Shown: positions 6,625-47,641 of the stretch, one piece after another
Layout of the letters: the number at the start of each line of letters is the position of its first letter
Position numbering within the stretch: position 1 is the stretch's first letter
Source of the DNA: an uncultured Clostridia bacterium
GTDB taxonomy: Bacteria; Bacillota; Clostridia; Christensenellales; Borkfalkiaceae
DNA length: 64,000 nucleotides
Assembly: GCA_947570625.1 (NCBI GenBank)
Contig: CANOUP010000003.1
Location: 19,239-83,238, forward strand
Direction of reading: 5' to 3'
Translations under genes and position numbers: made by a program
Notes under the pieces: generated by a model
The model's input: only the letters and a program-made list of their open reading frames with translations
The model's database searches: none
What the model was told of the DNA's origin: nothing

Positions 6625-6652
6625 ACAGTTTCGGAAACACCGGAACTGTTTG
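6625..6652 (+). terminator. Hairpin after purB, possible terminator with only a short U-tract
   Basis: 9-bp stem 6625-6633/6641-6649 (acagtttcg / cggaactgt, one G.U pair) followed by only ttt. The island-side repeat begins at 6651. Confidence 0.45.
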
Positions 6653-6667
6653 GCAGGGGAGACACGA
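6651..6667. repeat. Distal att-type direct repeat (copy of the tRNA-Trp 3' end)
   Basis: Exact 17/17 identity to 47567-47583. The next 7 nt match 4/7 (gccgaat versus ttcgaac). Confidence 0.7.
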
Positions 6668-6790
6668 GCCGAATTTTTGGCTAAAATTATGTAAAAACGC
6701 TTAAATTACCTTAAAAAATGGGTAAAAATAGCCCAAAATTGAAAAATAAAGGCTTATAAAAATCAAAATTTAAAAATTTTTTATAAATTT

Positions 6791-6813
6791 TAGTGACACT
6801 CTTGTGTTCACTA
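6791..6813. repeat. Inverted pair of TAGTG(A)ACAC motifs related to the repeats at 47463-47496
   Basis: tagtgacac (6791-6799) and the reverse complement of gtgttcacta (6804-6813). Compare tagtggacac x3 near tRNA-Trp. Confidence 0.4.
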
Positions 6814-7010
6814 TTTTTTTATAAATATTCAATTTTATTATGCAACAATTTAACTGGTTCCCATTGCGGAAATTAAAAAATATTTTGGATTTGAAAATAT
6901 GATAATTCTTTGTGTAAAATTGATTGGTGTGTATTATAATATAAATTGAAAATTATAGAGTAAATTTTATGTCGCAATGTAATGTAAAAATATTTTATAA
7001 GGAATGAAAT

Positions 7011-8699
7011 ATGAATATATTGGAATACACAAAGCAGGATTTATATGCTTTAATGCTTAACGACACTTATAACGATTTTTTTGGGGCAATAAACTTAAAA
7101 GTCGAATTTGATAATGCAGAAAAATACTTAGAATATTATGCGTACAAAGCAAACAAAATTGAGTGTTTGGATGATTTTATTGATTATTTGTTTTTGTGGA
7201 AACAGAGTTTATACATCAATGCACTACCATACATTAAAGATGAAAGAAAGAAGGAGTTTGAACAAGTATATAGACATTTTGAAGAATTGTTTGCTAATTA
7301 TAAAGTAAAAGATGTAATATCATTTGTAAATAATCATTATTTCGAGATATGTGCCAATCAGGTTATTGCATTTGTTTCGTTTTCATTTATAAGCAATAAA
7401 CAAAAAGGCATTGATAAGAGTGTTTTTATTGAGTATGCTCAAAAGCAACCGTATATTTGGTATAGAAATCTAAAAAATCAAATTAAGTATTTATTACTAA
7501 ATAAAGATATAGTTGAAATATTATTTTCACAAGCAAATTTTGATAAGTATATGCTCGGTATGTATGATTTGATGTTTGAGTGCTTATCGATTTTGGCTAA
7601 GTATCCAATTTTCAATTCAATTGTAGAGCAAAATATGCAACGAATTATTGATTTTATGGATTCTATGGAAAAAGAAATTCAACAGGAAAATATTTTTCAG
7701 CACTATTTTGTTTATGAAGATTTTTGTGAGTTTTTACATAAATCAAAACATCCAAAAGCAAATGATAAGATTACTAACTTAAAACAATATGCAATGCTTT
7801 TAGAAAAGGAAATAGCAGACAATGGTCATCATTTTTCGTTTGAAATCAAAGGCAAAGATATTGAAGCGCATATCGGTAAAGTTGAGCCACAGTATGAAAT
7901 TTTACAATTAACGCATACATTTGACAAAGAACAGGATTGTATTATGTCAGTTTTTGAAAATGTAATGAAAAATCAAAATGAACAATCTTCATTAGTTGAT
8001 GTATTTAGGAACAACATACCGCATAACGATTATTTTACGACGTCAAAAATTGAGAAACTTCAACAAACGGTTTCTATTTATATAATAGTGCTTAATCACT
8101 ACATAAGTAAACCCGAAAGACAAAAATTTGTATTTACTTATATTAAATCTGTGATAGGTAGTGTATGTAATAAATTAGGTATTGATTATTTGGAAAATGG
8201 ATTACCTAATGATATTGAAATCATAGAAGCGGCGTTTTATAATTCATTTGAAATTGTAAGTAAAAATCAGTCTCAAGAAAAACAGATAATCCTACAATTG
8301 CTGTGTTATTCTTTAATTTCTTATATTTGTTCTTTTATAGAGAAATTATTAAGAGAAGTATTTATTAAAGAAAATCAAGAGCAAATGTTTATAGATGTGA
8401 ATAGTTTGACGCTCGGAGATTTGCTAAATATAAATAATAAAGTAATGGTAGAAATCTTAGGTTATGAGCAAGTTCGCTGTTTAAGATATTTTTTGCATAT
8501 GGATAATAATGAAGTAGGCGAAAATATAAGGAATAGATTTGCTCATTTTAATGGAGTAACGCCAAAGGATTTTCAGCCCAATACCGTTATTAAAGTTTTA
8601 TGGTTATTGCTTGGTATTGTAAATTCGCTAACATTGCACTATTTAATGACATCGGAAAACTCGGAAAACGAGGAGAATAATACAAACGCAAAGGGTTAA
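7011..8699 (+). CDS. Large alpha-helical protein with a C-terminal HEPN-type Rx4H motif (DUF4209-like)
   Basis: 562 aa. IRNRFAH lies at aa 506-512 (RNRFAH codons 8529-8546), preceded by LTLGDLL...LRYFLH and followed by a hydrophobic helix. This is the pattern I recall for DUF4209/HEPN. The gene is very AT-rich. Confidence 0.6.
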   Translation: MNILEYTKQDLYALMLNDTYNDFFGAINLKVEFDNAEKYLEYYAYKANKIECLDDFIDYLFLWKQSLYINALPYIKDERKKEFEQVYRHFEELFANYKVKDVISFVNNHYFEICANQVIAFVSFSFISNKQKGIDKSVFIEYAQKQPYIWYRNLKNQIKYLLLNKDIVEILFSQANFDKYMLGMYDLMFECLSILAKYPIFNSIVEQNMQRIIDFMDSMEKEIQQENIFQHYFVYEDFCEFLHKSKHPKANDKITNLKQYAMLLEKEIADNGHHFSFEIKGKDIEAHIGKVEPQYEILQLTHTFDKEQDCIMSVFENVMKNQNEQSSLVDVFRNNIPHNDYFTTSKIEKLQQTVSIYIIVLNHYISKPERQKFVFTYIKSVIGSVCNKLGIDYLENGLPNDIEIIEAAFYNSFEIVSKNQSQEKQIILQLLCYSLISYICSFIEKLLREVFIKENQEQMFIDVNSLTLGDLLNINNKVMVEILGYEQVRCLRYFLHMDNNEVGENIRNRFAHFNGVTPKDFQPNTVIKVLWLLLGIVNSLTLHYLMTSENSENEENNTNAKG

Positions 8700-8702
8700 A
8701 TT

Positions 8703-9326
8703 ATGGCTAAATTTGTTACAAGAAACGAAAGAAAAATAGCAATCGCGCGGGCGACGAAAATAGTTCGTGCTGTACAAGAGTATCTTGCGCCGAACTATAA
8801 AATGAATCCGCGATTAGTTGGATCGGCAAGATATAACGCGGTTATTTGTGATGATAGCGGTGTGTATGATATGGACTATCAACTTGTTTTGACTAATAAT
8901 TGCAAGTGTGAGAAGTTCGACGCGGATGTGATTCGTAAAGACTTTTTTACGGCATTTAATGCTGTAAAAAATAAAAATGAAAAAGTGGAGAACTCTACTT
9001 CCGTAATAACTGTCAGAGTTTCAAACAATAGCGGGAAGTTTGATAGCGATAAGGAAATTTTCAGTTTTGATTTTGCAATAGTGATTGAAAATAATCAAGG
9101 CTCATTTATAACGCGGCGAAATGATGATAATCATTGTGTGTGGAATAAATTGCCGAGCAAGAATAGTTACATATACGAAACATATTTTTCGTTAGATTAC
9201 TCTGACCAAAAAACGATTATTGATCGTGTAGTAAATCGTAAAATTAAAGAAAAAGCAAAACCAAAAGATAAGCGCATTGCTTCATCTGTTATATTTATGG
9301 AAGAAGTAAATAAGTTTGGAGATTGA
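8703..9326 (+). CDS. Minimal Pol-beta-superfamily nucleotidyltransferase
   Basis: 207 aa. G40-S41 (from 8820), D56-M-D58 (8868-8876) and a later FSFDFAIV strand give the GS / DxD / D catalytic pattern. The start lies 3 nt after the upstream stop. Confidence 0.6.
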   Translation: MAKFVTRNERKIAIARATKIVRAVQEYLAPNYKMNPRLVGSARYNAVICDDSGVYDMDYQLVLTNNCKCEKFDADVIRKDFFTAFNAVKNKNEKVENSTSVITVRVSNNSGKFDSDKEIFSFDFAIVIENNQGSFITRRNDDNHCVWNKLPSKNSYIYETYFSLDYSDQKTIIDRVVNRKIKEKAKPKDKRIASSVIFMEEVNKFGD

Positions 9327-9328
9327 CT

Positions 9329-9730
9329 ATGACGCCCAAAAAATTATTATATGAGATGACCTATGTAAATGAAAAACAAAGGGCAGAAGCGGAAAAGTAC
9401 ATTGCCTTAAAAGGAATTGTACAATATCGACGTGTCATAGAGTTTTGTCGTTCTCAGGGCGAAATACCTACATACACAAAAGTATCTTCAATGTATCGCT
9501 ATGATAAACGATTGCGGGATACTTTATATATTTATCTTGCGACTGCCGAAGAATTTATGCGTGCTTGCATAGGAAATCAATTTGAAGATAACGAAAGCGG
9601 GTTAATGAAAACTTCAAAATTCATTGCGAAACAAAGACAATATCAATCTGTATCACTAACATTGGAACAATTGACATTGGGTGCTTTAATTGATATGGTT
9701 TTGAGCAAAGGCTTAGACAACAGTTATTAA
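9329..9730 (+). CDS. Abi_2 (AbiD/AbiF) N-terminal-like protein lacking the HEPN half, possibly a truncated gene
   Basis: YRRVIEF... and SSMYRYDKRLRDTLYIYLATAEEFMRACIG resemble the Abi_2 lY.fD.kLR..l...iE block. No RNxxAH motif follows. ATG 9329 is preferred to TTG 9323 (ggag at 9317-9320). Confidence 0.5.
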   Translation: MTPKKLLYEMTYVNEKQRAEAEKYIALKGIVQYRRVIEFCRSQGEIPTYTKVSSMYRYDKRLRDTLYIYLATAEEFMRACIGNQFEDNESGLMKTSKFIAKQRQYQSVSLTLEQLTLGALIDMVLSKGLDNSY

Positions 9731-9918
9731 AAGAGCCAATTTCAATAGGAAGAATGTCAGATATATCTCAAAAATTTGATAAGTATTGTTATGACGGTGT
9801 GAAAATTAAATTAAAGGCAGATATAGAAACGTATGAGTAGTCTTAAATCTATGCTATTCGTTCTAATTCTATCGTAGTGGCACAGCATGGCACATTTTTT
9901 GTGCGGTGGCACACGAAA

Positions 9919-9971
9919 TCCAACTGCTGAGCGGACTTGAACCGCCGACCTCATCCTTACCAAGGACGAAC
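9919..9971 (-). other. tRNA-like 3' fragment (variable-arm hairpin plus T-arm), probable relic att site
   Basis: The minus strand reads gttcgTCCTTggtAAGGAtgaggtcGGCGGTTCAAGTCCGCTcagcagt. It has a class-II-like variable arm and a GGTTCAAGTCC T-loop, but no 5' half or anticodon arm. Confidence 0.45.
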
Positions 9972-10202
9972 CCTAATTTTTGAAAAGGAGTAACCCTAAT
10001 TTAAAAATATGCTAAAACACACAATATATTGTGGTTTTAAGCGGATTTTCTTGTTCTTGATACAATTTCAAAATATTTGCAGATATTTTTTAATTCAAAT
10101 TGTCTGCAAATGTCTGCAATTTTAGAGAATTAGAACGATTTAGAGCGTTTTAGAAAGGTTTAATCATTGTTATTTTTATATTGAATCGTAAATAATAAAC
10201 TT

Positions 10203-10463
10203 ATGATAAATTATGAAAAGGTTTACGTTTCAGTATATCTTAAAATCAATTTAAACGGAATAATGAAACCCGTCGCTGTAGAATGGACGGATGGAAAACG
10301 GTTTGAAATAGAAAAAGTTATAGACGAGCGCAACGCACCGCCCGAACATACCGGAGGCGTGCTTACGAGAAAGTATAAAGTAATTATAAATGGTAAAGAG
10401 AAAATAATTTATTTGGATAAGCAGACAAACAGGTGGTTTGTGGAAAAGCCGTTGTACGATTAA
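10203..10463 (+). CDS. Small hypothetical protein upstream of dinB
   Basis: 86-aa ORF ending 28 nt before the dinB start. No family recognised. Confidence 0.5.
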   Translation: MINYEKVYVSVYLKINLNGIMKPVAVEWTDGKRFEIEKVIDERNAPPEHTGGVLTRKYKVIINGKEKIIYLDKQTNRWFVEKPLYD

Positions 10464-10491
10464 GTACGGCGGCTTTGCTCATACTTTGAAT

Positions 10492-11742
10492 ATGCGAACC
10501 ATTCTGCACAGCGATTTAAATAACTTTTACGCATCCGTTGAGTGCTTGCGTAATCCTGAAATAAGAAACTTCCCCGTTGTAGTTGTTGGAAGCAAAGAGG
10601 ACAGGCACGGAATAGTTCTTGCTAAAAATATGATAGCCAAAGGCTTCGGTGTTAAGACGGGCGACGTATATTGGGAAGCAAAGCAAAAGTGCGGCGGAAC
10701 GCTCGTTGAAGTGCAAGCGGACTTTTCAACTTATATAAATGTTTCAAGAGAAGTTCGTAAAATTTATGAGGACTATGCGGACAGAATAGAAGCCTACGGC
10801 ATAGACGAGTGCTGGCTTGACGTCAGTTCGGGTTTAAAGCTGTTTGGAAGCGGCAGAGAGATAGCCGAAACTATAAGAGAGCGGATAAAGAAAGAAATAG
10901 GGCTTACTGTAAGTATTGGAGTTAGTTGGAATAAGATATTTGCAAAGCTCGGCTCTGATATGAAAAAGCCGGACGCAGTGACAGAAATTACAGCCGAAAA
11001 CTATAAACTAAAAGTATGGACTTTACCCGTGGAAGATTTGCTTTACGTTGGTAAGGCAACGCAGCAAAAACTTAACCGCATGGGCATTAAGACGATAGGC
11101 GACCTTGCCCAAGCCGACGAGCAGACTCTTGTAAATTTACTCGGCAAGTGGGGATATTATCTTCATACTTTTGCTAATGGTAAAGACGAATCACCTGTAA
11201 CTAAAATAGGTGAAGAAGAAGCAATTAAATCCATAGGCAACAGTCTTACAGTTTATAGAGATTTGGTAGACGAAAACGACGTAGAGCCGGTAATTTATCT
11301 GCTTGCGGACAGCGTAAGCGCAAGAATGAGAGAGGCAGGACTGAACAAAGCCCGCACCGTTCACGTCTATGCGAGGGCAAATAATTTGGTGGGGTATCAG
11401 AAACAAGGGAAACTCCCCCGACCTTCCGGCACTATGCAGGCCGTAGCAAAAACGGCATTAAAACTGTTTAAGGAAGTCTATCCGTGGGAGAAGCCCGTGC
11501 GCAGTCTTGGAATATCCGTTTCAGACTTTTTATTCGGAAACGAACAGCTCGATTTATTCGGAGATTTGGAAAAGGACGAAAAGCAGAAGCGGTTGGATAA
11601 TGCAATAGACAAACTGCGGGAGAAGTACGGCAACAACGTGATTCAGGCGGCTATCGTTTATAAAGACCCGAAACTTAAAGATTTGGATATAAAGGGGGAA
11701 CATACAATTCACCCGTATAGCTTTTTCAAAAACAATAAATAA
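10492..11742 (+). CDS. dinB: DNA polymerase IV (Y-family translesion polymerase)
   Basis: MRTILHSDLNNFYASVE..., GIDECWLDV, SIGVSWNKIFAKLGSDMKKPD. Start set at ATG 10492. Confidence 0.92.
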   Translation: MRTILHSDLNNFYASVECLRNPEIRNFPVVVVGSKEDRHGIVLAKNMIAKGFGVKTGDVYWEAKQKCGGTLVEVQADFSTYINVSREVRKIYEDYADRIEAYGIDECWLDVSSGLKLFGSGREIAETIRERIKKEIGLTVSIGVSWNKIFAKLGSDMKKPDAVTEITAENYKLKVWTLPVEDLLYVGKATQQKLNRMGIKTIGDLAQADEQTLVNLLGKWGYYLHTFANGKDESPVTKIGEEEAIKSIGNSLTVYRDLVDENDVEPVIYLLADSVSARMREAGLNKARTVHVYARANNLVGYQKQGKLPRPSGTMQAVAKTALKLFKEVYPWEKPVRSLGISVSDFLFGNEQLDLFGDLEKDEKQKRLDNAIDKLREKYGNNVIQAAIVYKDPKLKDLDIKGEHTIHPYSFFKNNK

Positions 11743-11765
11743 AGCGCACGTTACAAGTGCGCTTT
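11741..11765. terminator. Bidirectional hairpin shared by the convergent dinB and SRAP genes
   Basis: aaagcgcac-gttacaa-gtgcgcttt, overlapping the SRAP stop codon. Confidence 0.6.
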
Positions 11766-12305
11766 TAGTTTTATTTGATTGTCCGTTAAAATGAACCGGC
11801 GGGCAAAGTCCTTATCGTTCAGATAGTAGTCTTTTATATCCTCGCCCACAATGACGGGTATGCGGTTGTGATATTTTTCTACGGGCGGAGTGGACTGTTT
11901 AGTAAGAATAATAAACTTGTTTTCCCCGTCCTCGTTGCGATAAAATCCGCCGAGATATAAAACCTTTCCGTCCAAACGCTCAAAGTAGTACTTATTCTTG
12001 TAAGTATCCCACTCATAAAAACCGCTTGCAGGAATAAGGCATCTTCGCTCTAAAAAGCTCTTGCGGAAGGTCTGTTTATCCGTAACTGTTTCAGCGCGGG
12101 CGTTAATAAGCACGCCTTTACCGTCGAACTTACCGAAGCCCCATTTGGAAAGTATCGGGTGTTTATCTTTTGTAAGAACGGGCATATAGTAAGTAGGGTA
12201 AATATCGCCGAATTTAATCTGAACGTTTCTCTCGCTTTCAGGTAGTTCGCTTAAAATCCGCTCTATATCCTTGTCGTTGCTGTTAAAATGAAATCTTCCG
12301 CACAT
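11751..12305 (-). CDS. SOS-response-associated peptidase (SRAP / YedK family, abasic-site processing)
   Basis: Starts MCGRF (catalytic Cys2). 184 aa with ...INARAET... and ...PASGFYEW.... Confidence 0.85.
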   Translation of the reverse strand: MCGRFHFNSNDKDIERILSELPESERNVQIKFGDIYPTYYMPVLTKDKHPILSKWGFGKFDGKGVLINARAETVTDKQTFRKSFLERRCLIPASGFYEWDTYKNKYYFERLDGKVLYLGGFYRNEDGENKFIILTKQSTPPVEKYHNRIPVIVGEDIKDYYLNDKDFARRFILTDNQIKLKAHL

Positions 12306-12380
12306 ACATTAAGTTTGTTCAGTTTGCAAATATTTATAAAATTACTGAATATTGGCTAAAATTTAATGTGTATAAAAGCC

Positions 12381-12409
12381 TTGACAAATACATATAATAT
12401 AATTATAAT
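12381..12409 (+). promoter_or_regulatory. Consensus sigma-A-type promoter for brnT-brnA
   Basis: TTGACA (12381-12386), 17-nt spacer, TATAAT (12404-12409). The brnT ATG is at 12416. Confidence 0.55.
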
Positions 12410-12415
12410 ATAATT

Positions 12416-12709
12416 ATGGAAGAAATAAGTTTTGAATGGGACGATAATAAAAATACTATAAACAAGAATAAGCATAAAATATCGTTTGAAGAAGCAAAGA
12501 CTGTATTTTATGACGAACAGGCTTTGGTAATAGATGACCCGGAACATTCAGCGGAAGAAGAACGTTTTATTATTCTCGGTTTCAGTACGCAAGCCAATTT
12601 GCTTGTGGTTTGCCATTGTTATCGTTCTGCTGATATGGTAATAAGAATTATATCGGCAAGAAAAGCCACTAAAAACGAAGCAAAATATTACGAAAAGAGA
12701 GGTGACTAA
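12416..12709 (+). CDS. brnT: BrnT-family (DUF497) ribonuclease toxin
   Basis: FEWDDNKNTINKNKHKISFEEA... and RIISARKATKNE are typical of BrnT. 97 aa, overlapping brnA by 8 nt. Confidence 0.8.
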   Translation: MEEISFEWDDNKNTINKNKHKISFEEAKTVFYDEQALVIDDPEHSAEEERFIILGFSTQANLLVVCHCYRSADMVIRIISARKATKNEAKYYEKRGD

Positions 12710-12920
12710 AATGAAGAATGAATATGATTTTTCAAATGCAAGACAAAACCCTTACGTTAAGAAGTTGAAAAAGCAAATTACTATCAACCTTGATAATGAA
12801 ACAATTGATTATTTTAAGAGCCTTGCGCAAAATACGGGTATACCTTATCAAACGCTTATAAATTTGTTCCTTGCAGACTGTGCAAAGAATAAAAAGCAGC
12901 CTACGGTTGCGTGGAACTAA
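12702..12920 (+). CDS. brnA: BrnA-family antitoxin
   Basis: 72 aa, with ...ITINLDNETIDYFKSLAQNTGIPYQTLINLFL.... The toxin-then-antitoxin order matches BrnTA. Confidence 0.75.
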   Translation: MTKMKNEYDFSNARQNPYVKKLKKQITINLDNETIDYFKSLAQNTGIPYQTLINLFLADCAKNKKQPTVAWN

Positions 12921-12940
12921 ATATAAACTAAATTTAAATA

Positions 12941-12972
12941 TAACGGCAGTTTATACTGCCGTTATTTTTTTA
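12941..12972 (+). terminator. Intrinsic terminator after brnA
   Basis: taacggcagt-ttat-actgccgtta followed by a T-run. Confidence 0.8.
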
Positions 12973-12993
12973 TTCTCTGCGCATACTGTCATT

Positions 12994-13809
12994 ATGGCAT
13001 ACAGTTATAAAGGCAGTATAAGTTTCGGGTTTGTGTACATTCCCGTAACCCTGCATAAGATCATAAAAAGCAACGATATCGGTTTTAATATGATAGACAA
13101 AAAGACCAACTGCCGAGTGCAGTATAAAAAAACCTGCGCAGATTGCGGCGGTAGGGAAGTCAAACAGGAAGATATAGTAAAGGGCTTCGAGTACGAGGAC
13201 GGAAAGTACGTTATCTTTGAAGATAAGGACTTTGAAAAGCTGAAATCCAAGAAAGACAAAAATATAACCATTGAAAAGTTTGTTGAACTTGCCGAGGTTG
13301 ACCCTCTGTATTTTGAAACGCCTTACTATGTTGTTCCCACGGGTGCTGAAAAGGCGTTTGTTGTGCTTTTAAAAGCTATGGAGGAAGAGGGTAAAGCAGC
13401 GGTTGCAAAAACAGTATTAGGCAATAAAGAAACGCTTATTTTAATAAGGGCGAAAGACGGGCAGATGCTTTTGAACACGCTATTCTTTGAAGAGGAAGTA
13501 ACCAAAAATCCTGCAAAGGAAATAACCGAAAAGCCGAGCGCCACCGAACTTAAAATGGCAAAGGCAATTATAGAGGGAATGAGTGGAAAATTCGTTCCGT
13601 CCGAATATAAGGACGAATACCGCCAAAAGGTGCAGGAAGCGATAGAGAGAAAGATTGCCGGCAAGCAAATTGTAGCACCCAAAGAGAACGGAACGGCAAG
13701 CGTTTCGAACCTTATGGAAGCGCTTACAAAATCGCTTGAGCTTGCGCAGAAGCCCAAAGCTAAAAAGGCTACACCGAAGAAAACGACGACGAGGAAGAAA
13801 GAGGCGTGA
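12994..13809 (+). CDS. ku: Ku protein (non-homologous end joining)
   Basis: MAYSYKGSISFGFVYIPVTLHK... with a lysine-rich C-terminal tail. Start placed at ATG 12994, downstream of the brnA terminator. Confidence 0.9.
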   Translation: MAYSYKGSISFGFVYIPVTLHKIIKSNDIGFNMIDKKTNCRVQYKKTCADCGGREVKQEDIVKGFEYEDGKYVIFEDKDFEKLKSKKDKNITIEKFVELAEVDPLYFETPYYVVPTGAEKAFVVLLKAMEEEGKAAVAKTVLGNKETLILIRAKDGQMLLNTLFFEEEVTKNPAKEITEKPSATELKMAKAIIEGMSGKFVPSEYKDEYRQKVQEAIERKIAGKQIVAPKENGTASVSNLMEALTKSLELAQKPKAKKATPKKTTTRKKEA

Positions 13810-14723
13810 GCGATTTATTTGAAGAAAAAAATATCTCGCCTATGCTATTGCACGAGGTCAAAAAGCCATTTGATGACGAGGACTATATATACGAATTGAA
13901 GTTGGACGGAATACGTTGCGTGGCTTATATAGAGCCTAAATCGGTATCTCTGCAAAATAAGCGGTTTAAGGAATTGACCCCCATATATCCAGAACTTTCG
14001 GATATTTGCAAGTGCGTTAAAAAGCGTGTAATACTTGACGGAGAGCTTGTCTTTCTGACAGACGGCAAGCCAAATTTTTATGCTCTGCAACGGCGCAGTC
14101 TTATGACGGACAGTTTCAGAATATCGCTTGCGGCAAAGAAAAATCCCGTGCAGTTCGCAGCTTACGATATTATTTATTTTGACGGAAAAGATCTTACGGA
14201 TAAACCGCTTTTGGAGCGTAAAGAAATTCTTTCCGAAAATGTAAGAGAAGGCTTTAATTTAAGCATATCCCGTTGGATAGAAAAGAGCGGCGTTGCCTTT
14301 TTCGAGCTTGCGAAGAAAGAGAACTTGGAGGGCATCGTCGCCAAGAAAAAGGACGGCCTGTATCACATAGGCAAGCGCACGTTGGAATGGATAAAGATTA
14401 AAGTAATGCAGGATGAGGACTTACTTATTTTGGGTTATCAGCCAGACGAAGACGGGAAAGTTAAAGATTTAATTTTAGGTTTCTATGACGATAAAGGCGA
14501 ACTTAAATGCAGGGGGAAAGTTTACCTCGGTGTATCCAAAGCAGAGCAGAAAATCATAGCCGAATTTGCAAAAAAGAACACGGTCAAAATACCGTGGTTC
14601 GATAAATATAAAAACGTAGTGTGGTTAAAACCGCAGCTTGTCGGTACGGCTCATTTTATGCATGAAACTGAAAACGGCGGTATGCGTCAGCCCGTGTGGA
14701 AGGGGTTGAGGGAAGATAAGTAA
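13806..14723 (+). CDS. ligD: ATP-dependent DNA ligase (LigD ligase domain only)
   Basis: ELKLDGIRCVAY (KxDG adenylation motif), 305 aa. The GTG start overlaps the ku stop (GTGA). Confidence 0.88.
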   Translation: MSDLFEEKNISPMLLHEVKKPFDDEDYIYELKLDGIRCVAYIEPKSVSLQNKRFKELTPIYPELSDICKCVKKRVILDGELVFLTDGKPNFYALQRRSLMTDSFRISLAAKKNPVQFAAYDIIYFDGKDLTDKPLLERKEILSENVREGFNLSISRWIEKSGVAFFELAKKENLEGIVAKKKDGLYHIGKRTLEWIKIKVMQDEDLLILGYQPDEDGKVKDLILGFYDDKGELKCRGKVYLGVSKAEQKIIAEFAKKNTVKIPWFDKYKNVVWLKPQLVGTAHFMHETENGGMRQPVWKGLREDK

Positions 14724-14737
14724 ATTTTTTAATAGTA

Positions 14738-14766: not shown

Positions 14767-14772
14767 AAAAAC

Positions 14773-38251: not shown

Positions 38252-38734
38252 ATGATAGATTTATATGAAGATATCAATATCGTAAAAATTCAATTTAAAA
38301 AAAGGTGCAATATAGCAATTTGTATTACACTTTCTATAATATCCTTAGCCGCTTGTATTCTTTTAACCGTTTTCGTTACACACAATAATAAAACGGTTAT
38401 GCTTGCCGTGACTTGTGTAGTTGCGGTTACGGGCGGCTGGTTTATTATAGCCGATATTATGTTGGCGATTTTACCATATAAATATTTGTTGAGGCATATA
38501 GAAGCCGTCCGAAGCTATGTAAAGGTTCCCGACTGCGGGCAAGTGGACGGGATTAAATATATGACTGTAAACAAGTGGCTGTCCGCTTATGAAGTAACGG
38601 TTACAGAGAATGGTGTTAAGAATATTTTTTTGTGGAACACGGCAGCGGGAGGGTTAAGCATAAAAGTCGGCGACAAGGTCAAAATTGTCAGCGCAAACCG
38701 CTTTATTATCAGTTGCGAGGCGGTATATGAATAA
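38252..38734 (+). CDS. Hypothetical membrane protein (2 predicted TM segments)
   Basis: 160-aa ORF directly abutting the upstream stop. Two hydrophobic segments are visible. Confidence 0.5.
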   Translation: MIDLYEDINIVKIQFKKRCNIAICITLSIISLAACILLTVFVTHNNKTVMLAVTCVVAVTGGWFIIADIMLAILPYKYLLRHIEAVRSYVKVPDCGQVDGIKYMTVNKWLSAYEVTVTENGVKNIFLWNTAAGGLSIKVGDKVKIVSANRFIISCEAVYE

Positions 38735-40933: not shown

Positions 40934-40942
40934 AGGAATAAT

Positions 40943-42250
40943 ATGAACTATTATTTGGCAATCGATATCGGGGCATCAAGCGGACGACATATCGTCGGTT
41001 GGCTCGAAAATAACGAAATAAAAACGGACGAGGTGTACCGTTTCCCTAACGGTATGAAGAAACAAAACAATCATCTCGTTTGGGACATCAAAAGCCTTTT
41101 TGAACACGTTAAAAAGGGTATCAGAGCGGCGCATAAAAAATATCCGTATATCGCTTCGATTGCAATAGACACTTGGGGTGTTGACTACGTCTTATTTACA
41201 GACAGCAGAGAGATAACGCCTTGTTTTGCATATAGAGATAATCGCACAGAAGCGGTTATAGACGAGGTACACGACAAAGTGCCTTTTGAGGAATTGTATG
41301 AAAGAACAGGTATACAGTTTCAGCCATTCAATACTGTGTATCAGTTTTACGACGATTTAAAGCGTAAGCGTTTGGATATGGCTTCGGACTTTTTAATGAT
41401 ACCCGAATATCTTAACTATATGCTTACGGGCGTGAAAATGCACGAATACACCAACGCCACAACGACGGGTTTGGTAAACGCAAAAACGAAAGAGTATGAT
41501 AGAGAGATAATAGAAAAGCTCGGATTCCCTATGCAGTTATTCGGAAAACTATATCAGCCGGGAACGAGCGTGGGTATGTTAAAACCCGAAATTGCTATTG
41601 CCGTAGGCGGGCAGACGGAAGTCGTTTTGTGTGCTTCTCACGACACGGCAAGCGCAGTCGAGGGTATACCTATGGACGGTGACAGTCCGTATATTTCAAG
41701 CGGAACCTGGTCGCTGTTGGGGCTTAAAGTGCCTGATGCAATCACGGACGAGAATAGCAGAAAAGCCAACTATTCCAATGAGGGCGGCGTAGGTTATACC
41801 CGCTATCAGAAGAACATTATGGGTATGTGGGTAGTCAATCGTTTGCGTGATGAACTCTGTCCTGATAAACCTTTCCTGCAAATCGTGGAGGAAGCAAGAC
41901 AAAGTATGTTCAATGATTACGTTTACGTAAACGATAACTTATTTGTTGCGCCGAAAAGCATGAAAGAAGCGTTCGACAAATGGCTTGAAAACGAAATAAT
42001 AAAACCGCAAACCGAAAGCGATTATTTCTGTTGTGCCTTTATAAGCCTTGCAATCAGCTATATGAACGCATTGGACGAATTAAAGAAGAACAGCGGAAAA
42101 GATTTTGATACACTTTACATAGTAGGCGGCGGAGCAAAGAACAGCTTGCTAAACGAATTAACGGAGCAAGTTTGCAAAATAAAAGTGAAAGCACTTCCCA
42201 TTGAAGCTACGGCTATCGGGAATTTGAAAATACAAATCGGGAGGCAATAA
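40943..42250 (+). CDS. rhaB: Rhamnulokinase
   Basis: FGGY-family kinase (YLAIDIGASSGRHIVG...) directly upstream of rhaA and rhaD. Confidence 0.85.
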   Translation: MNYYLAIDIGASSGRHIVGWLENNEIKTDEVYRFPNGMKKQNNHLVWDIKSLFEHVKKGIRAAHKKYPYIASIAIDTWGVDYVLFTDSREITPCFAYRDNRTEAVIDEVHDKVPFEELYERTGIQFQPFNTVYQFYDDLKRKRLDMASDFLMIPEYLNYMLTGVKMHEYTNATTTGLVNAKTKEYDREIIEKLGFPMQLFGKLYQPGTSVGMLKPEIAIAVGGQTEVVLCASHDTASAVEGIPMDGDSPYISSGTWSLLGLKVPDAITDENSRKANYSNEGGVGYTRYQKNIMGMWVVNRLRDELCPDKPFLQIVEEARQSMFNDYVYVNDNLFVAPKSMKEAFDKWLENEIIKPQTESDYFCCAFISLAISYMNALDELKKNSGKDFDTLYIVGGGAKNSLLNELTEQVCKIKVKALPIEATAIGNLKIQIGRQ

Positions 42251-42251
42251 A

Positions 42252-43484
42252 ATGTACGATTATGCAAAGAAAGTATACGCGGAATACGGTGTGGATACCG
42301 AAGCCGCGCTTGCAAAACTTAAAGATATTCCCGTGTCAATCCATTGTTGGCAAGGGGACGACGTAATAGGACTCGACGGTGGCGGTACAGCATCGGGTGG
42401 TATTCAGACAACGGGCAACTATCCGGGCAGAGCAAGGAATTTCGACGAACTCAAAGCCGATATCAAGAAAGCGTTCTCGCTTATGCCGGGGACAAAGCGT
42501 TTGAATTTACACGCAAGCTACGCGGTAGGCGCAACGGTTGACAGGGATAAATACGAGCCTAAACATTTTAAGGCTTGGGTCGATTTTGCAAAAGAGATAG
42601 GCTTGCAGGGCATTGACTTTAACCCCACGATGTTTAGCCATAAAAACGTAAAGGATGGTTTGACATTATCTTCGCCTGATGAGATTATAAGAAAGTTTTG
42701 GGTAGAGCATTGCAAGGCTTGTTTGAAGATTGCAGAATACTTTGCAACCGAAATGAACAGCCATTGCCTTGTAAATATTTGGATACCCGACGGATTTAAG
42801 GATGTACCCGCAGATAGACTTACGCCGAGATTAAGATTAAAGAAATCGTTGGACGAAATACTGTCTTGCGGTTACGATAAAAACAAAGTGATAGTAGCGG
42901 TAGAGAGCAAGGTGTTTGGGATAGGCGTTGAAAGCTACACCGTAGGCAGTAACGAGTTCTATCAGAACTATGCGGCAAAGAACGGTATCTGCTGTCTTTT
43001 GGATAACGGACACTATCATCCGCTTGAATATGTCAGCGATAAAATTCCTGCGCTTTTAGCGTTCTATGATAGAGTTGCCTTGCACGTTACAAGAGGTGTG
43101 CGTTGGGATAGCGACCACGTTGTATTGTTAGAGGACGAGCTTAAAGAGATTGCAAAAGAGATTGTTCGTAACGACGCAACCGAAAAGGTTATGATAGGTC
43201 TTGACTATTTCGATGCAAGCATTAACCGCCTTGCGGCGTGGATCGTTGGACAGCGCAATATGCAAAAAGCATTATTATGGGCGTTGTTGCAACCAAACGG
43301 TAAACTCAAAGCGTTGCAGGACGAAAGCAACTTTACCGAACTTATGGTATTGCAGGAAGAACTTAAAACCTTACCGTTTGAAGCGGTATGGGCAGAGTAT
43401 CTTAATCGTCAGAAAGTGGCGGGCGCAAATTGGTACGGGCAAATCAAAGAATATGAAAAAACAGTATTAAACCATAGGAGCTAA
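42252..43484 (+). CDS. rhaA: L-rhamnose isomerase
   Basis: IHCWQGDDV, GGIQTTGNYPG, SNEFY and VRWDSDHVVLL align closely with E. coli RhaA as recalled. Confidence 0.95.
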   Translation: MYDYAKKVYAEYGVDTEAALAKLKDIPVSIHCWQGDDVIGLDGGGTASGGIQTTGNYPGRARNFDELKADIKKAFSLMPGTKRLNLHASYAVGATVDRDKYEPKHFKAWVDFAKEIGLQGIDFNPTMFSHKNVKDGLTLSSPDEIIRKFWVEHCKACLKIAEYFATEMNSHCLVNIWIPDGFKDVPADRLTPRLRLKKSLDEILSCGYDKNKVIVAVESKVFGIGVESYTVGSNEFYQNYAAKNGICCLLDNGHYHPLEYVSDKIPALLAFYDRVALHVTRGVRWDSDHVVLLEDELKEIAKEIVRNDATEKVMIGLDYFDASINRLAAWIVGQRNMQKALLWALLQPNGKLKALQDESNFTELMVLQEELKTLPFEAVWAEYLNRQKVAGANWYGQIKEYEKTVLNHRS

Positions 43485-43486
43485 CT

Positions 43487-44302
43487 ATGTCAGAACTTTT
43501 TACAAATATACCCTTCGTCAAAGAATTGGCTGCAACGGCAGACAATATGTATCGTCTTGGCTGGGACGAGAGAAACGGCGGCAATATCAGTTACTTGATT
43601 CCCGAAGAAGAAGTAGCGGCGTATCTCGACATACACCACGTTAAAAGAACGATACCGCTCGGCTTTAATGCCAAAGAGCTTGTCGGCAAATATTTTCTCG
43701 TTACGGGAACGGGCAAGTATTTCAAAAACGTAAACGGCGATCCCGAAACAAATCTTGGTTTATTCCGTATTGCAAAAGACGGACAGAACGCAGAGCTTTT
43801 ATGGGGTTATGCGGACGGTGGTAAGTTTACGAGCGAACTTCCTGCACACCTTATGAGCCATATCGAAAGATTAAAGGTAGATCTCGAAAACAGAGTGATA
43901 ATGCACACACACCCGACGAATCTGCTTGCAATGACTTACGTTCACGAACTCGATACGAAGAAGTTTACCCATACGCTTTGGCAGATGAGTACGGAGTGTA
44001 TCGTTGTATTCCCCGACGGAGTGGAAGTTTTACCGTGGATGCTTTGCGGCACGAATGAAATCGGCGTTGCAACGGCAGAAAAGATGAAATCGGCAAGGGT
44101 AGTCGTATGGGCATTGCATGGAATATACGGCTCAGGTAAGACGCTCGATGAAACTTTCGGTCTTATCGAAACGGTAGAAAAGGCGTCGGAAATCTTTATC
44201 AAAACAGCGCACTTGCCGAGATTGAACACAATTACGGACAGTCAGTTAAAAGAGCTTGCAGGTCTTTTTAAGGTTGAGGTAAGAAAAGGGATATTGTCCT
44301 AA
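43487..44302 (+). CDS. rhaD: Rhamnulose-1-phosphate aldolase
   Basis: GWDERNGGN, TSELPAHLMSH, TECIVVFPDG and HGIYGSG match RhaD. Confidence 0.93.
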   Translation: MSELFTNIPFVKELAATADNMYRLGWDERNGGNISYLIPEEEVAAYLDIHHVKRTIPLGFNAKELVGKYFLVTGTGKYFKNVNGDPETNLGLFRIAKDGQNAELLWGYADGGKFTSELPAHLMSHIERLKVDLENRVIMHTHPTNLLAMTYVHELDTKKFTHTLWQMSTECIVVFPDGVEVLPWMLCGTNEIGVATAEKMKSARVVVWALHGIYGSGKTLDETFGLIETVEKASEIFIKTAHLPRLNTITDSQLKELAGLFKVEVRKGILS

Positions 44303-44309
44303 TAAATAC

Positions 44310-45293
44310 ATGGAAGAAAGTAAAAAAGCAAAAACGAACACCGCTAATTTGGTACAGAACTATATCGGCATAGATATAGGCGGTACAACAATTAAAGGCG
44401 CAATTATTAACCATAGCGGAGATATACTTCGGGAAGCGAGAATTGAAACGAGTGCAAAAGGCGATGGCGAAGGTTTGAGAAACAATGTCGTTGCGCTTGT
44501 CAATGAAATGGTAATGGGGTACGGCGGTTTCAAATCTTCGTTCGGCGGAATCGGAATAGGTTGCCCCGGACTAATTGACAGTAAGCGCGGTATGATTGTT
44601 TTTTCGGGAAATCTCGGATTAAATTATTATCCGCTCGGAAGTGTGGTATCGGATAGTCTTGGAATGTCCGTCAAGGTTACGAACGACGCTAACGCCGCAG
44701 CTTTGGGAGAAGCTAAATTCGGTGCGGGTAAAAAGTATAAAGACAGTATACTGATAACGCTTGGAACGGGCGTAGGCGGCGGAATTGTTGTTGACGGAAA
44801 GCTGTTTGAGGGCGGAAGTTCGGCGGGAACTGAAATAGGGCATACTGTTATCGTTGAGAACGGAGAACCTTGTACTTGTGGAAGAAAAGGTTGTCTTGAA
44901 GCGTATTCATCCGCAACAGCGCTAATCCGCAAGACGAAGGAAATTATGCAGGAAAACGAAGATTCCGCTATGTGGAAAAAATATAATCTCAAAATGGTTT
45001 CGGGCAAGACTGCGTTCGATTATGCCGAAACGGACGAAGCGGCAAAAAGTGTTGTGGATTGGTACGTTAAATACCTTGCCTGTGGCGTTACCAACCTTGC
45101 AAATATATTCCGTCCGCAAGTGGTTATGCTCGGCGGCGGTGTGGCGGCACAAAAAGATAAACTCACAAAACCCGTTCAGAAGCTGTTGGACAAACAAATT
45201 TTTGCGGGGCAAGGATACGCAGGTGTTAAAGTAGTTACCGCTTCGCTTGGTAATAAAGCGGGCGTTTACGGAGCGGCAGCTTTGAATATGTAA
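44310..45293 (+). CDS. ROK-family sugar kinase (glucokinase-like)
   Basis: IGIDIGGTTIKG and the zinc motif GHTVI...CTCGRKGCLE. Confidence 0.85.
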   Translation: MEESKKAKTNTANLVQNYIGIDIGGTTIKGAIINHSGDILREARIETSAKGDGEGLRNNVVALVNEMVMGYGGFKSSFGGIGIGCPGLIDSKRGMIVFSGNLGLNYYPLGSVVSDSLGMSVKVTNDANAAALGEAKFGAGKKYKDSILITLGTGVGGGIVVDGKLFEGGSSAGTEIGHTVIVENGEPCTCGRKGCLEAYSSATALIRKTKEIMQENEDSAMWKKYNLKMVSGKTAFDYAETDEAAKSVVDWYVKYLACGVTNLANIFRPQVVMLGGGVAAQKDKLTKPVQKLLDKQIFAGQGYAGVKVVTASLGNKAGVYGAAALNM

Positions 45294-45318
45294 AAAATTT
45301 TTTGAGAGGTAAAATAAA

Positions 45319-46467
45319 ATGTCAAACAGAATAGTATTAAACGAAACAAGCTATCACGGCGCAGGCTGTATCAAGGAAATTGTAGGGGAAGTGCAAAGAC
45401 GAGGACTCAAAAAGGCGTTTGTATGTTCAGATCCCGACCTTGTAAAATTTAAGGTTACGAATAAGGTTTTGGACGTCTTAAAGAGTGCGAATCTTGCGCA
45501 CGAGCTTTATAGCGATATTAAACCCAATCCCACGATAGAAAACGTGCAGTCGGGCGTTGCTGCCTATAAAAAGAGCAAGGCAGATTATATTATTGCAATC
45601 GGCGGCGGATCTTCAATGGACACCGCAAAGGCAATCGGCATTATAATAAACAATCCCGAATTTGAGGACGTGCGCTCGTTGGAAGGCGTTGCGCCTACAA
45701 AGAAAGCTTCCGTACCAATTATCGCTGTTCCCACAACGGCAGGTACGGCTGCGGAAGTTACCATTAACTACGTTATAACCGACGTTGAGAAAAAGCGCAA
45801 GTTCGTGTGCGTTGACGTTCACGATATACCCGTAGTAGCAGTAGTTGACAGCGATATGATGAGTACAATGCCCAAAGGCTTAACCGCCGCAACGGGTATG
45901 GATGCGCTTACCCACGCAATAGAGGGTTACATTACCAAAGGCGCGTGGGAAATGACCGATATGTTCCACTTAAAGGCTATTGAAATTATTTCAAAATCAT
46001 TACGCGGCGCGGTTAACGGCGAAAAGGACGGAAGAGAGGGCATGGCTCTCGGTCAGTACGTTGCAGGCATGGGCTTTTCCAACGTGGGGCTGGGCATAGT
46101 TCACTCTATGGCGCACGCTTTGGGTGCGGTATATGATACGCCGCACGGCGTTGCAAACGCAATACTGCTGCCTACGGTTATGGCTTACAATGCGGAAGCC
46201 ACAGGCGAAAAGTACCGCGATATAGCAAAGGCAATGGGCGTTGCAAACGTTGATAAAATGGGCTTGACCGAAGCAAGAAAAGCCGCATGCGAAGCGGTTG
46301 CCAAGCTATCCAAAGACGTAGGTATTCCGCAGGACTTAAAGGGGATTGTCAGGGAAAAGGATATAGATTTCCTTGCACAGTCCGCAATGGACGATGCTTG
46401 CCGTCCGGGTAATCCCAAAGAACCTACGAAAGAAGATATTGTAAAACTTTATAAATCATTGTTATAA
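45319..46467 (+). CDS. fucO: Lactaldehyde reductase (Fe-dependent 1,2-propanediol oxidoreductase)
   Basis: Strong resemblance to E. coli FucO throughout (IINNPEFEDVRSLEG, PTTAGTAAEVTINYVITD, GMGFSNVGLG). Confidence 0.92.
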   Translation: MSNRIVLNETSYHGAGCIKEIVGEVQRRGLKKAFVCSDPDLVKFKVTNKVLDVLKSANLAHELYSDIKPNPTIENVQSGVAAYKKSKADYIIAIGGGSSMDTAKAIGIIINNPEFEDVRSLEGVAPTKKASVPIIAVPTTAGTAAEVTINYVITDVEKKRKFVCVDVHDIPVVAVVDSDMMSTMPKGLTAATGMDALTHAIEGYITKGAWEMTDMFHLKAIEIISKSLRGAVNGEKDGREGMALGQYVAGMGFSNVGLGIVHSMAHALGAVYDTPHGVANAILLPTVMAYNAEATGEKYRDIAKAMGVANVDKMGLTEARKAACEAVAKLSKDVGIPQDLKGIVREKDIDFLAQSAMDDACRPGNPKEPTKEDIVKLYKSLL

Positions 46468-46491
46468 TAATCTGACACAATACTGAAGACT

Positions 46492-46704
46492 ATGGAAACA
46501 CTAAGGAATAACGAAGCTAATAACACAGAAAAAAGCCATATCCGTTGTCCAAGATGCGATAAGGAGATTTTTCAAGCAGTCGCTATGACTGAATGTATAG
46601 TTAAATGCAATAAATGTCATAGACGATATTTGATAAATGCACAAGACGGTAGTGTTTCCATTATATTATTAAGAAAACCAAAAGACGAGAAAGGAAGCGT
46701 GTGA
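46492..46704 (+). CDS. Small zinc-ribbon protein, phage Mu Com-like
   Basis: CPRC...CNKC paired cysteines, 70 aa. It lies in the AT-rich right arm of the island. Confidence 0.5.
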   Translation: METLRNNEANNTEKSHIRCPRCDKEIFQAVAMTECIVKCNKCHRRYLINAQDGSVSIILLRKPKDEKGSV

Positions 46705-46718
46705 TGCGCTTCCTTTTT
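46691..46718 (+). terminator. Intrinsic terminator overlapping the end of the Com-like ORF
   Basis: aggaagcg-tgtgatg-cgcttcct followed by tttttt. Confidence 0.7.
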
Positions 46719-46968
46719 TACATAAAAACAATTTTATAGACAATAAGTGCCAAAATATGCAGTTATAATTTTTATATAATGAGCATAAGCACCAATGTGT
46801 GTAGTATAGCACAGTCATAAGCCTTGAAAGACAGGATAGGGAGTGTGTGTACTTATGACAAATTATTAGATGCACGACAACTTAATATTTTACTGTAATA
46901 TAATCTGAATCCGCAAAAATAAGCGAGTAGAGTTTGAGCAGGGCTAAACCTTTAATAGACAAATAGTT

Positions 46969-47313
46969 TTGCCCAAAAATCTCGTTAATATTTTAAAAGA
47001 GTATAAAGTTATATGTGAGCAAGAATATGATTTTGCAGAAAATAATTTTGTGTTTGGCGGAAAATTTCCTTTATCATCTCAAACAGTTAGACGAAGATTA
47101 AATGAGTATGCCGATAAAGCAGGAGTAAAAAGGATAAGAGTACACGATCTGCGTCATTCTCATGCATCCTTACTAATTAATAAGGGACAAAATATATTAA
47201 TTGTTTCTCAAAGACTTGGACACAGTGATATAACCCAAACTTTAAATACATACAGTCATTTGTTCCCAAATGTACAAAAGCAAATTATAGACGCAATAGA
47301 TTTAGAATTATAA
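46969..47313 (+). pseudogene. Tyrosine recombinase / phage integrase, C-terminal catalytic fragment only
   Basis: HDLRHSHASLLI and GHSDITQTLNTYSHL (HxxR, H and Y catalytic residues). Only about 114 aa with no ATG start. There is an in-frame TAA 21 nt upstream, and too little room (265 nt) for the N-terminal domains. Confidence 0.8.
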
Positions 47314-47315
47314 AA

Positions 47316-47343
47316 AAAGCACTTTTAATAAAGTGCTTTTTTT
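47316..47343 (+). terminator. Intrinsic terminator after the integrase fragment
   Basis: aaagcactt-ttaata-aagtgcttt followed by a T-run. Confidence 0.7.
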
Positions 47344-47462
47344 AAATTGAAAATTTTTAAGAAATACGACATTGGATTGACTTTACTAAAAGAATTTGAT
47401 AAAATCAAAACAGTTTGGTAAATGAATAAAAAATGAATAGTAATTTTATCAAAAAAATAGTT

Positions 47463-47496
47463 TAGTGGACGCTTTAGTGGACACTTTAGTGGACAC
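47463..47496. repeat. Three tandem 12-bp repeats TAGTGGAC(G/A)C(TT), candidate integrase arm-type sites
   Basis: tagtggacgc at 47463, tagtggacac at 47475 and at 47487. They lie 70 nt from the tRNA-Trp 3' end. Confidence 0.6.
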
Positions 47497-47566
47497 TTGA
47501 TTAACAAGTACTATATTTAGTGTAACAAAAACGCTCACACCACAACATATTGTGATATGAGCGCAT

Positions 47567-47641
47567 TGGCAGGGGAGACACGATTCGAACATGCAACCGA
47601 CGGTTTTGGAGACCGCGACTCTACCGTTGAGCTACTCCCCT
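47567..47641 (-). tRNA. trnW: tRNA-Trp (anticodon CCA), CCA end encoded
   Basis: The minus strand folds by hand as AGGGGAG-TA-GCTC-AACGGTA-GAGT-C-GCGGT-CTCCAAA-ACCGT-CGGTT-GCATG-TTCGAAT-CGTGT-CTCCCCT-G-CCA (75 nt). Confidence 0.9.

Follow-up and report, generated by a model that had tools for sequence, protein, structure and literature searches.

A strain-variable 40.9-kb island with a truncated integrase at the 3' end of tRNA-Trp in an uncultured gut clostridium

When the end of a tRNA gene recurs tens of kilobases away, the question is whether the DNA in between arrived as a unit and whether it can still leave. We addressed this for a 64-kb stretch of an uncultured Clostridia bacterium of the Borkfalkiaceae (contig CANOUP010000003.1 of assembly GCA_947570625.1, positions 19,239 to 83,238), referred to here as the window, in which a preliminary description had proposed a genomic island between purB and tRNA-Trp. 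The whole interval of 40,916 bp (6668 to 47583; about 35 genes) is an insertion, because empty sites in related strains join the hairpin behind purB directly to tRNA-Trp. The outer landmarks of the locus are as follows.

6623 to 6650, no strand assigned: hairpin after purB, defined by folding of both strands and by the empty-site sequence
6651 to 6667, minus strand: distal att core, a 17-bp partial copy of tRNA-Trp; left boundary of the island
47531 to 47564, minus strand: element-borne hairpin (15-bp stem, -23 kcal/mol, z = -5.7) followed by a U-run
47567 to 47641, minus strand: intact tRNA-Trp(CCA), whose last 17 nucleotides (nt) (47567 to 47583) form the proximal att core

Empty and occupied sites at tRNA-Trp

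Relatives were retrieved as contigs encoding a right-flank protein identical to that of the window (a pyrroline-5-carboxylate reductase-like, or P5CR-like, protein; 47707 to 48504), and further occupied sites were retrieved through the 562-amino-acid (562-aa) protein of the left arm. Among contigs with the identical P5CR-like protein, the locus has two configurations. In the empty configuration (L002, L003, L007, and L010), the gap between purB and the P5CR-like gene is 185 bp, and alignment showed it to equal, base for base, the left flank of the window, a single 17-mer, and the body of tRNA-Trp. In the occupied configuration, the same site carries the island with the same junctions in L001, L006, L022, and at least 16 contigs found via the 562-aa protein (the occupied contigs listed are L001, L006, and L011 to L022), a presence/absence polymorphism within the same species. 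The preliminary description had predicted that an empty site would join the purB terminator to tRNA-Trp and had named relatives carrying the interval without any repeat as contrary evidence; the comparison returned exact empty sites, with the terminator adjoining tRNA-Trp through a single 17-mer in at least four metagenome contigs, and supports the island.

The repeat itself, TGGCAGGGGAGACACGA, occurs exactly twice in the 64-kb window (6651 to 6667 and 47567 to 47583) with up to two mismatches allowed, and a T that precedes both copies extends the identity to 18 bp. A chance repeat was ruled out by the absence of any copy across 100 dinucleotide-preserving shuffles together with the exact junctions. 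ARAGORN and Rfam both place tRNA-Trp(CCA), the sole tRNA, on the minus strand, and the plus-strand 17-mer is the reverse complement of its 3' end, comprising the 3' strand of the T-stem, the acceptor, and the CCA. Both the repeat at the two ends and its identity with the tRNA 3' end had been described correctly, with the strand of the tRNA now corrected to minus. A promoter-like site, matching 11 of 12 consensus positions, lies at 47689 to 47661 on the minus strand. Read in the direction of the tRNA, the order is tRNA-Trp, hairpin, tandem repeats, integrase fragment, cargo, and partial tRNA copy, which is the layout first proposed and is correct along the tRNA's own strand.

Flanks of the occupied strains are 99.94 to 100% identical to those of the window. 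Empty-site contigs differ from it by 0.4 to 1.8% (left flanks, 98.2 to 99.4% identical) and also differ from one another. The density of single-nucleotide polymorphisms (SNPs) does not increase toward the junctions; in L003, the 1.1 kb before the left junction are free of SNPs, and the 1 kb after the right junction contains a single one. This pattern argues for site-specific insertion over import of divergent flanks, and the simplest reading would be that a single sublineage gained the 40,916 bp once, by site-specific insertion.

The same flanks bear on whether the island was instead imported already in place, by homologous recombination through purB and tRNA-Trp, from another strain or a sibling species. 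All occupied strains share the identical integrase truncation, and distant taxa with integrase stubs at the same tRNA (see below) make donors of preformed islands plausible. Nevertheless, flanks near the junctions are no more diverged from the empty-site strains than distal flanks are, as the L003 counts illustrate, and the sole other lineage seen with part of the island (contig L127, 95% identical) is too short to show flanks. We consider import in place unlikely. It is also decidedly improbable that the interval is ancestral and was removed from the empty-site strains through exact excision by the integrase. Recombination between the two identical 17-bp cores would yield exactly the empty site seen, but the empty-site strains represent several diverged lineages whereas the bearers are nearly clonal, which makes one gain more parsimonious, and every copy seen of the resident integrase is defunct.

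The best explanation as a whole, which we hold to be highly probable, is a decayed tRNA-Trp integrative island with properties of a cis-mobilizable element (CIME). An arm-binding tyrosine integrase, of a family found on elements resembling integrative and conjugative elements (ICEs) or integrative and mobilizable elements (IMEs), would have inserted the island into the 3' end of tRNA-Trp(CCA) by site-specific recombination between the attP of the element and the tRNA end, within their 17 to 18 bp of identity. This event would have rebuilt tRNA-Trp beside the integrase arm, left the partial copy 40.9 kb away beside the purB hairpin, and set the element-borne hairpin directly after the tRNA. The element would now be a non-autonomous composite, with its integrase cut to the last 118 residues and an unused tRNA-Thr attP-like relic inside, and its excision or transfer would be possible solely with a related integrase acting in trans.

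Such an insertion would also have exchanged one terminator for another. Where the island is absent, the purB hairpin directly adjoins the CCA of tRNA-Trp; on the tRNA strand (-11.8 kcal/mol) it is followed by UUUUUUUUGUUUU, with a run of eight U residues, and on the purB strand by UUUGG only. This hairpin would be the native bidirectional terminator, now 40.9 kb from tRNA-Trp. The preliminary description was right that the distal repeat copy directly follows the hairpin, which ends at 6650 where the copy starts at 6651, and wrong that the U-tract of purB had been truncated, since the hairpin is the same at empty sites and it is the tRNA strand that carries the long U-run. The element-borne hairpin begins 3 nt past the CCA and is centered on the palindrome CACAAYATATTGTG, which is kept in L029, L030, L035, and L044; it is presumed to serve as the replacement terminator for tRNA-Trp.

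The integrase remnant and the island ends

The ends of the island hold an integrase remnant and presumed sites for it. The relevant features are the following.

6668 to 7010, no strand assigned: AT-rich non-coding distal arm with an inverted pair of arm-type-like sites
46957 to 47313, plus strand: 3' fragment of a tyrosine integrase gene (PF00589), matching residues 302 to 419 of a 419-aa relative
47461 to 47498, plus strand: 3.2 tandem copies of a 12-bp repeat, TTTAGTGGACAC, presumed arm-type integrase binding sites of the proximal arm

The open reading frame (ORF) of the integrase fragment has the 114 codons first reported (46969 to 47313, the C-terminal part of PF00589), and its homology reaches further, spanning 118 residues of the integrase of L044, a metagenome-assembled genome (MAG) labelled uncultured Eubacteriales. 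This reference relative contains the domains Arm-DNA-bind_4, Phage_int_SAM_3 (SAM_3), and Phage_integrase. The stub keeps HDLRH (the HxxR motif) and the catalytic tyrosine (LNTYSH); it is without TGxRxGE, which is the first catalytic arginine box, and without the SAM-like core-binding and arm-binding domains, all of which L044 has. Because the first arginine box and both DNA-binding domains are absent, the stub cannot be an active recombinase.

A tblastn search with four full-length relatives detected no trace of the missing 301 N-terminal residues in the window outside 46957 to 47310, and we rejected on this basis the idea that cargo had inserted within the integrase gene and displaced its N terminus to elsewhere in the window. 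Two left-arm proteins, of 562 and 280 aa, were considered as degenerate integrases and were unconvincing (PDB code 2KHQ, E = 0.0098; BLASTP against the L044 integrase, E = 0.15). The stub is 100% identical across all island-bearing contigs. Because it is truncated in each one examined, it is reasonable to regard the island as not autonomously mobile; the earlier wording that the island is probably immobilized was too strong, as the att and arm-type sites are intact.

In the distal arm, TAGTGACAC (6791 to 6799, plus strand) and TAGTGAACAC (6804 to 6813, minus strand) both match the repeat unit of the right arm. The decamer TAGTGNACAC occurs three times in 64 kb, against 0.24 expected, and is restricted to the two island ends, twice in the right-arm repeats and once, inverted, at 6804 to 6813 in the left arm. 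Sites of the form TAGTG(N)ACAC are likewise matched between the island ends and found only there. Each end thus carries cognate arm-type-like sites, and the two att cores are identical. The att architecture of L044 is as in the window, with three to four tandem repeats (TTTTAGGGCCAC), a strong hairpin centered on CACAATATATTGTG, and the tRNA-Trp 3' end, and the succession of tandem repeat, hairpin, and tRNA is also found in L029 and L035. Because both att sites and the arm-type sites are intact, mobilization of the island in trans by a related integrase is conceivable.

In L044, the intact integrase adjoins tRNA-Trp, and the 9 kb upstream encode ArdC-N, DUF3846, YodL, three DNA methylases, and a primase-polymerase helix-bundle protein, a gene set that we take to be typical of conjugative or mobilizable elements and that does not resemble phage. 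A 98-aa ORF upstream of the L044 integrase is a putative excisionase. Apart from the integrase, no proteins are common to the L044 element and the island. A further family member was seen in L046, where a full-length integrase (2384 to 3760; 61 to 65% identical) is followed 135 nt on by a partial tRNA-Trp 3' end whose relative orientation is reversed and which is set among non-tRNA sequence and motifs resembling GTGACAC. This locus may be the attP of an excised or plasmid-like form or a differently organized member of the family.

Related integrase stubs, with 78 to 79% amino acid identity, lie beside tRNA-Trp in distant taxa. Truncated integrases of this family at tRNA-Trp were seen in L029 to L034 and L043 (stub at 10001 to 10345), in L035 to L038, and in L048. 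In the distant taxa, tRNA-Trp is followed by genes for P5CR, RNase H, and a VTT-domain protein, and the P5CR is only 32% identical to that of the window. The nearest named carriers are Candidatus Coproplasma stercoravium and uncultured Clostridiales/Christensenellaceae MAGs. Different carbohydrate clusters abut the distant stubs, either GH67/DUF4838/melibiase or GH94/GFO-IDH-MocA.

Two further observations concern the surroundings of these stubs. L029 has an extra SUKH/SMI1_KNR4 (immunity-protein-like) gene between stub and tRNA-Trp (10523 to 10960) that L030 to L034 are without, a difference that amounts to small-scale turnover within the att-proximal arm. About 7 kb to the right of tRNA-Trp in L029 to L035, a few kilobases beyond the P5CR, RNase H, and VTT-domain genes, there is a separate full-length 356-aa integrase with phage-like HTH genes; in some of these contigs it sits beside Met-gamma-lyase and miaA, with the order inverted compared with the window. 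We read this region as a second integration hot spot combined with local rearrangement.

Because synonymous sites between the window and L029 stubs are saturated while pN = 0.17, the two genes were probably still functional while they diverged, and each was truncated separately. In the window (46957) as in the L029/L043 lineage (L029:9989), the homology starts at residue 302, with unrelated DNA upstream. A shared ancient truncation at this residue was rejected, as database fragments show many other breakpoints and decaying variants; the common start is probably coincidence plus a conserved internal methionine. The intact ORF, the low non-synonymous divergence, and the common start would also fit a stub retained as a functional short protein, for example one that binds att or affects tRNA expression. 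However, a low dN is expected of genes that diverged as intact integrases and were truncated only recently, and the L029-type 90% cluster includes versions of 76, 80, 83, 87, and 107 aa, a sign of ongoing decay. With the many truncation points among database fragments and the loss of the first arginine box and both DNA-binding domains, we find a retained function very unlikely. As to why stubs recur, it is plausible, if tRNA-Trp is assumed to be essential, that deletions cannot extend into the adjacent tRNA, so that the 3' end of the integrase gene survives.

Cargo, composition, and an internal tRNA-Thr relic

What the island carries between its ends is listed here from left to right.

7011 to 8699, plus strand: 562-aa protein with a weak C-terminal DUF4209 match and the motif RNRFAH (Rx4H, HEPN-like) read from the sequence
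8703 to 9326, plus strand: 207-aa protein with no family match and a GS...DxD pattern
9323 to 9730, plus strand: truncated Abi_2/AbiD-like gene (weak Abi_2/AbiD match), its 3' end deleted
9875 to 10155, minus strand: attP-like relic of a second integrative element, with repeats, a tRNA-Thr(GGU) fragment, a hairpin, and tandem repeats
10203 to 14723, plus strand: DNA-damage tolerance and repair module, starting with an 86-aa ORF and including the next six genes
10438 to 11742, plus strand: Y-family polymerase
11751 to 12305, minus strand: SRAP
12416 to 12709, plus strand: BrnT
12711 to 12920, plus strand: BrnA
12907 to 13809, plus strand: Ku
13806 to 14723, plus strand: ATP-dependent ligase, LigD ligase domain
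14890 to 40933, plus strand: glycan-utilization cluster of about 26 kb, with enzymes (GH106-like, GH43, GtaA-like hydrolase, trehalase-like glycoside hydrolase, and GH31), transport genes (solute-binding protein, two ABC permeases, and MalK-like and other ABC ATPases), membrane proteins, a 2056-aa surface protein, and an AraC regulator on the minus strand
40943 to 46467, plus strand: rhamnose catabolism, with a rhaB-like kinase, RhaA isomerase, class II aldolase (RhaD-like), ROK protein, and iron alcohol dehydrogenase (lactaldehyde-reductase-like)
46492 to 46704, plus strand: 70-aa Cys-rich ORF (weak Cys_rich_KTR match) followed by a hairpin

Composition separates the arms from the interior. 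The GC content of the arms is 29 to 31% (range, 27 to 35%), that of the interior 42.7%, and that of the host flanks 42 to 44%, and the arms have an atypical tetranucleotide signature. The AT-rich arms and host-like interior of the preliminary description are confirmed by GC content, with an interior that is marginally less host-like in tetranucleotides: its correlation with the host is slightly below that of equal-size host chunks (at 15.6 kb, r of 0.90 versus at least 0.945), which is consistent with an origin in a related genome.

The relic lies at the left compositional boundary. From left to right, it contains GTGGCACA-type repeats at 9877 to 9913, whose statistics are weak, a 43-nt 3' fragment of tRNA-Thr(GGU) at about 9925 to 9967, a hairpin containing CACAATATATTGTG (10020 to 10033), and 10-bp tandem repeats at 10096 to 10155. 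The fragment lies within an Rfam tRNA match (9922 to 9991, minus strand) that is below threshold (20 bits) and in which the anticodon arm, T arm, and 3' acceptor strand alone are good. In 17 of 20 metagenome loci, a 27-mer from the relic exactly matches the T arm and acceptor of a genuine tRNA-Thr(GGU) gene, and identity with tRNA-Thr genes extends over about 43 nt, beginning in the anticodon stem and ending at acceptor position 71, with non-tRNA sequence on either side. The palindrome in the relic hairpin, CACAATATATTGTG, recurs nowhere but beside tRNA-Trp (0.05 expected), and CACAAYATATTGTG is likewise found only beside the two tRNA-derived sequences.

Because the tRNA-Thr fragment has non-tRNA sequence on both sides, the relic looks like an unrecombined attP and not a chromosomal junction, and because this relic sits inside the island, the island combines at least two lineages of integrative elements, with the Trp att used and the Thr att unused. 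No integrase for a tRNA-Thr-type element is present in the island, and a sensitive Rfam scan of the whole island found no other internal tRNA relics; the right compositional boundary (about 46480) has no comparable relic. In the JGI contig L127, this relic is again joined to left-arm sequence, at 95% identity and with a different internal deletion.

The left arm has itself lost DNA. A 994-bp deletion at 9708 removed the 3' end of the Abi_2-like gene and most of a 280-aa ORF; the missing segment (L011:12699 to 13692) is absent from the window and L017 and present in L011, L012, L013, and L018. The intact arm (L011:10001 to 13826; window 7011 to 9840) has genes of 562, 207, 216, and 280 aa with nearly no family matches. 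Judging from motifs in the sequence, the 562-aa protein is a defense- or toxin-like candidate, and the 207-aa protein may be a minimal nucleotidyltransferase. The 216-aa protein also has an Rx4H (HEPN-like) motif, RNRVGH, and the four genes together could be an uncharacterized HEPN/MNT-type defense or toxin-antitoxin module. The defense cargo named in the preliminary description is thus plausible and weakly supported, by weak Abi_2/AbiD matches, HEPN-like Rx4H motifs, and the BrnT/BrnA toxin-antitoxin pair.

In other genomes, related integrases lie within a few kilobases of homologues of the 86-aa ORF of the repair module (L072, L073, and L092) and of the polymerase (L083). Two genes of the glycan cluster are frameshifted relative to other island-bearing strains, the GH106-like gene by a 1-bp deletion at about 16157 (a single 1027-aa gene in those strains) and a 358-aa membrane-protein gene by a 1-bp insertion in an A-run at 38662; either real pseudogenization or assembly errors would account for them. 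In the gene for the 2056-aa surface protein (25660 to 27351), segments repeat at a 1047-bp spacing, and one 223-nt pair is 92% identical, which indicates that its domain repeats were probably duplicated recently.

RhaB, RhaA, and RhaD (40943 to 44302) share 87 to 93% identity with a rhaBAD locus whose context differs and is not an island (L039 to L042), and the 90% cluster of RhaA has 221 members compared with one for this organism's GroEL, which suggests that the rha genes may have spread recently between species. Presence of the whole island in other species, traced through RhaA, was rejected, as the context examined was this non-island locus. The Cys-rich ORF was considered as an ICE gene and showed only weak similarity (E of about 0.07), to a small ORF that follows rhaD in a different species. 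Among the island ORFs, Pfam detected no relaxase, coupling protein, type IV secretion system, replication, or mobilization genes.

Classification and recurrence at the tRNA-Trp locus

By gene content, the island is neither an ICE nor a prophage. That it is a prophage remnant and not a derivative of a conjugative or mobilizable element is barely credible: the integrase fragment matches PHROG integrase families, and the 280-aa and Abi-like ORFs match PHROGs of unknown or moron function, but Pfam and PHROG found no capsid, tail, terminase, portal, or lysis genes in the 40.9 kb, the genes bordering the intact relative are those for ArdC-N, DUF3846, YodL, and methylases, and the 27-mer of the relic had no match in a viral contig collection.

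The island appears to fit the definition of a CIME, as it keeps attL and attR while integrase residues 1 to 301 and transfer genes are absent, and its derivation from an ICE or IME by decay is partly supported. CIMEs derived from ICESt1/ICESt3-type elements are known from Streptococcus thermophilus (PMC5704250, citing Pavlovic et al. 2004 and Bellanger et al. 2011). The island resembles these in its intact attL and attR, the loss of functional integration and transfer genes, its adaptive cargo, its signs of accretion and composite structure, and the presence of its integrase relatives on ICE/IME-like elements. It differs in that the S. thermophilus CIMEs target fda, whereas it targets the tRNA-Trp 3' end in uncultured gut Clostridia, and in that its second att relic is an unrecombined tRNA-Thr attP-like sequence, whereas tandem accretion involves repeated copies of one att.

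Classical tRNA islands with P4- or lambda-like tyrosine integrases include the Yersinia high-pathogenicity island at tRNA-Asn and Escherichia coli pathogenicity islands at tRNA-Sel/Leu. The tRNA 3'-end target, the short repeat that regenerates the tRNA, the integrase beside the tRNA, the strain-variable presence, and the frequent decay of the integrase are shared with these. Unlike them, the present island has metabolic and DNA repair cargo with no virulence genes and a host-like interior GC content, and its integrase family has an N-terminal Arm-DNA-bind_4 domain, which is typical of Firmicutes elements. Among gut bacteria, Bacteroides carries polysaccharide utilization loci (PULs) on ICEs. 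The parallel is a glycan cluster with its own regulator and transporter in a strain-polymorphic integrative element. The island differs in that its cluster is of the Gram-positive ABC-transporter type and not SusC/D, that its carrier is decayed, and that, of its genes, only rhaBAD has close homologues elsewhere, in a non-island context.

Several points weigh against the account of a decayed integrative island. The occupied strains are nearly clonal, so that decay may have preceded arrival or followed integration. Integration, like any order of decay and cargo capture, was inferred from end products and not seen directly. The interior has the GC content of the host, so composition alone does not flag it as foreign. 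The 10 kb of L044 seen contain no conjugation genes, and the designation of its relatives as ICE/IME-like rests on accessory genes. A circular attP junction would read ...GAGCGCAT-TGGCAGGGGAGACACGA-GCCGAATTTT..., and a 34-mer running from right end through core to left end was not found in JGI metagenome contigs, a collection that apparently does not include this species, which has turned up in ENA, Logan, and NCBI data only, and is hence uninformative here.

A broader possibility, which we raise with considerable doubt, is that tRNA-Trp is a lineage-wide landing pad in gut Christensenellales-like Clostridia, at which scaffolds exchange glycan and repair modules in trans. One integrase family would insert repeatedly and decay to a scaffold of att sites and integrase stub, and intact relatives such as the L044 element would mobilize these scaffolds in trans between distant species. 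The distant stubs at the same locus, the different carbohydrate clusters that abut them, and the intact att sites of the island are consistent with this proposal.

The biology of the island is what a mobile-element specialist would expect: a genuine and ordinary island that no longer moves by itself, of a known kind and revealing no new mechanism. It represents a clean strain-level gain of about 35 genes by an uncultured gut bacterium, for the use of rhamnose and complex glycans, Ku/ligase nonhomologous end joining, translesion polymerization, and defense-like functions. Because the junctions are exact and empty-site controls exist, the island can mark a clonal sublineage and illustrate the movement of niche-relevant carbohydrate genes in Gram-positive gut anaerobes. 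Its composite anatomy gives the decay-and-accretion model of integrative elements some further detail, namely a used Trp att, an unused Thr attP-like relic, a tRNA terminator presumably supplied by the element, and stubs that recur in distant taxa.

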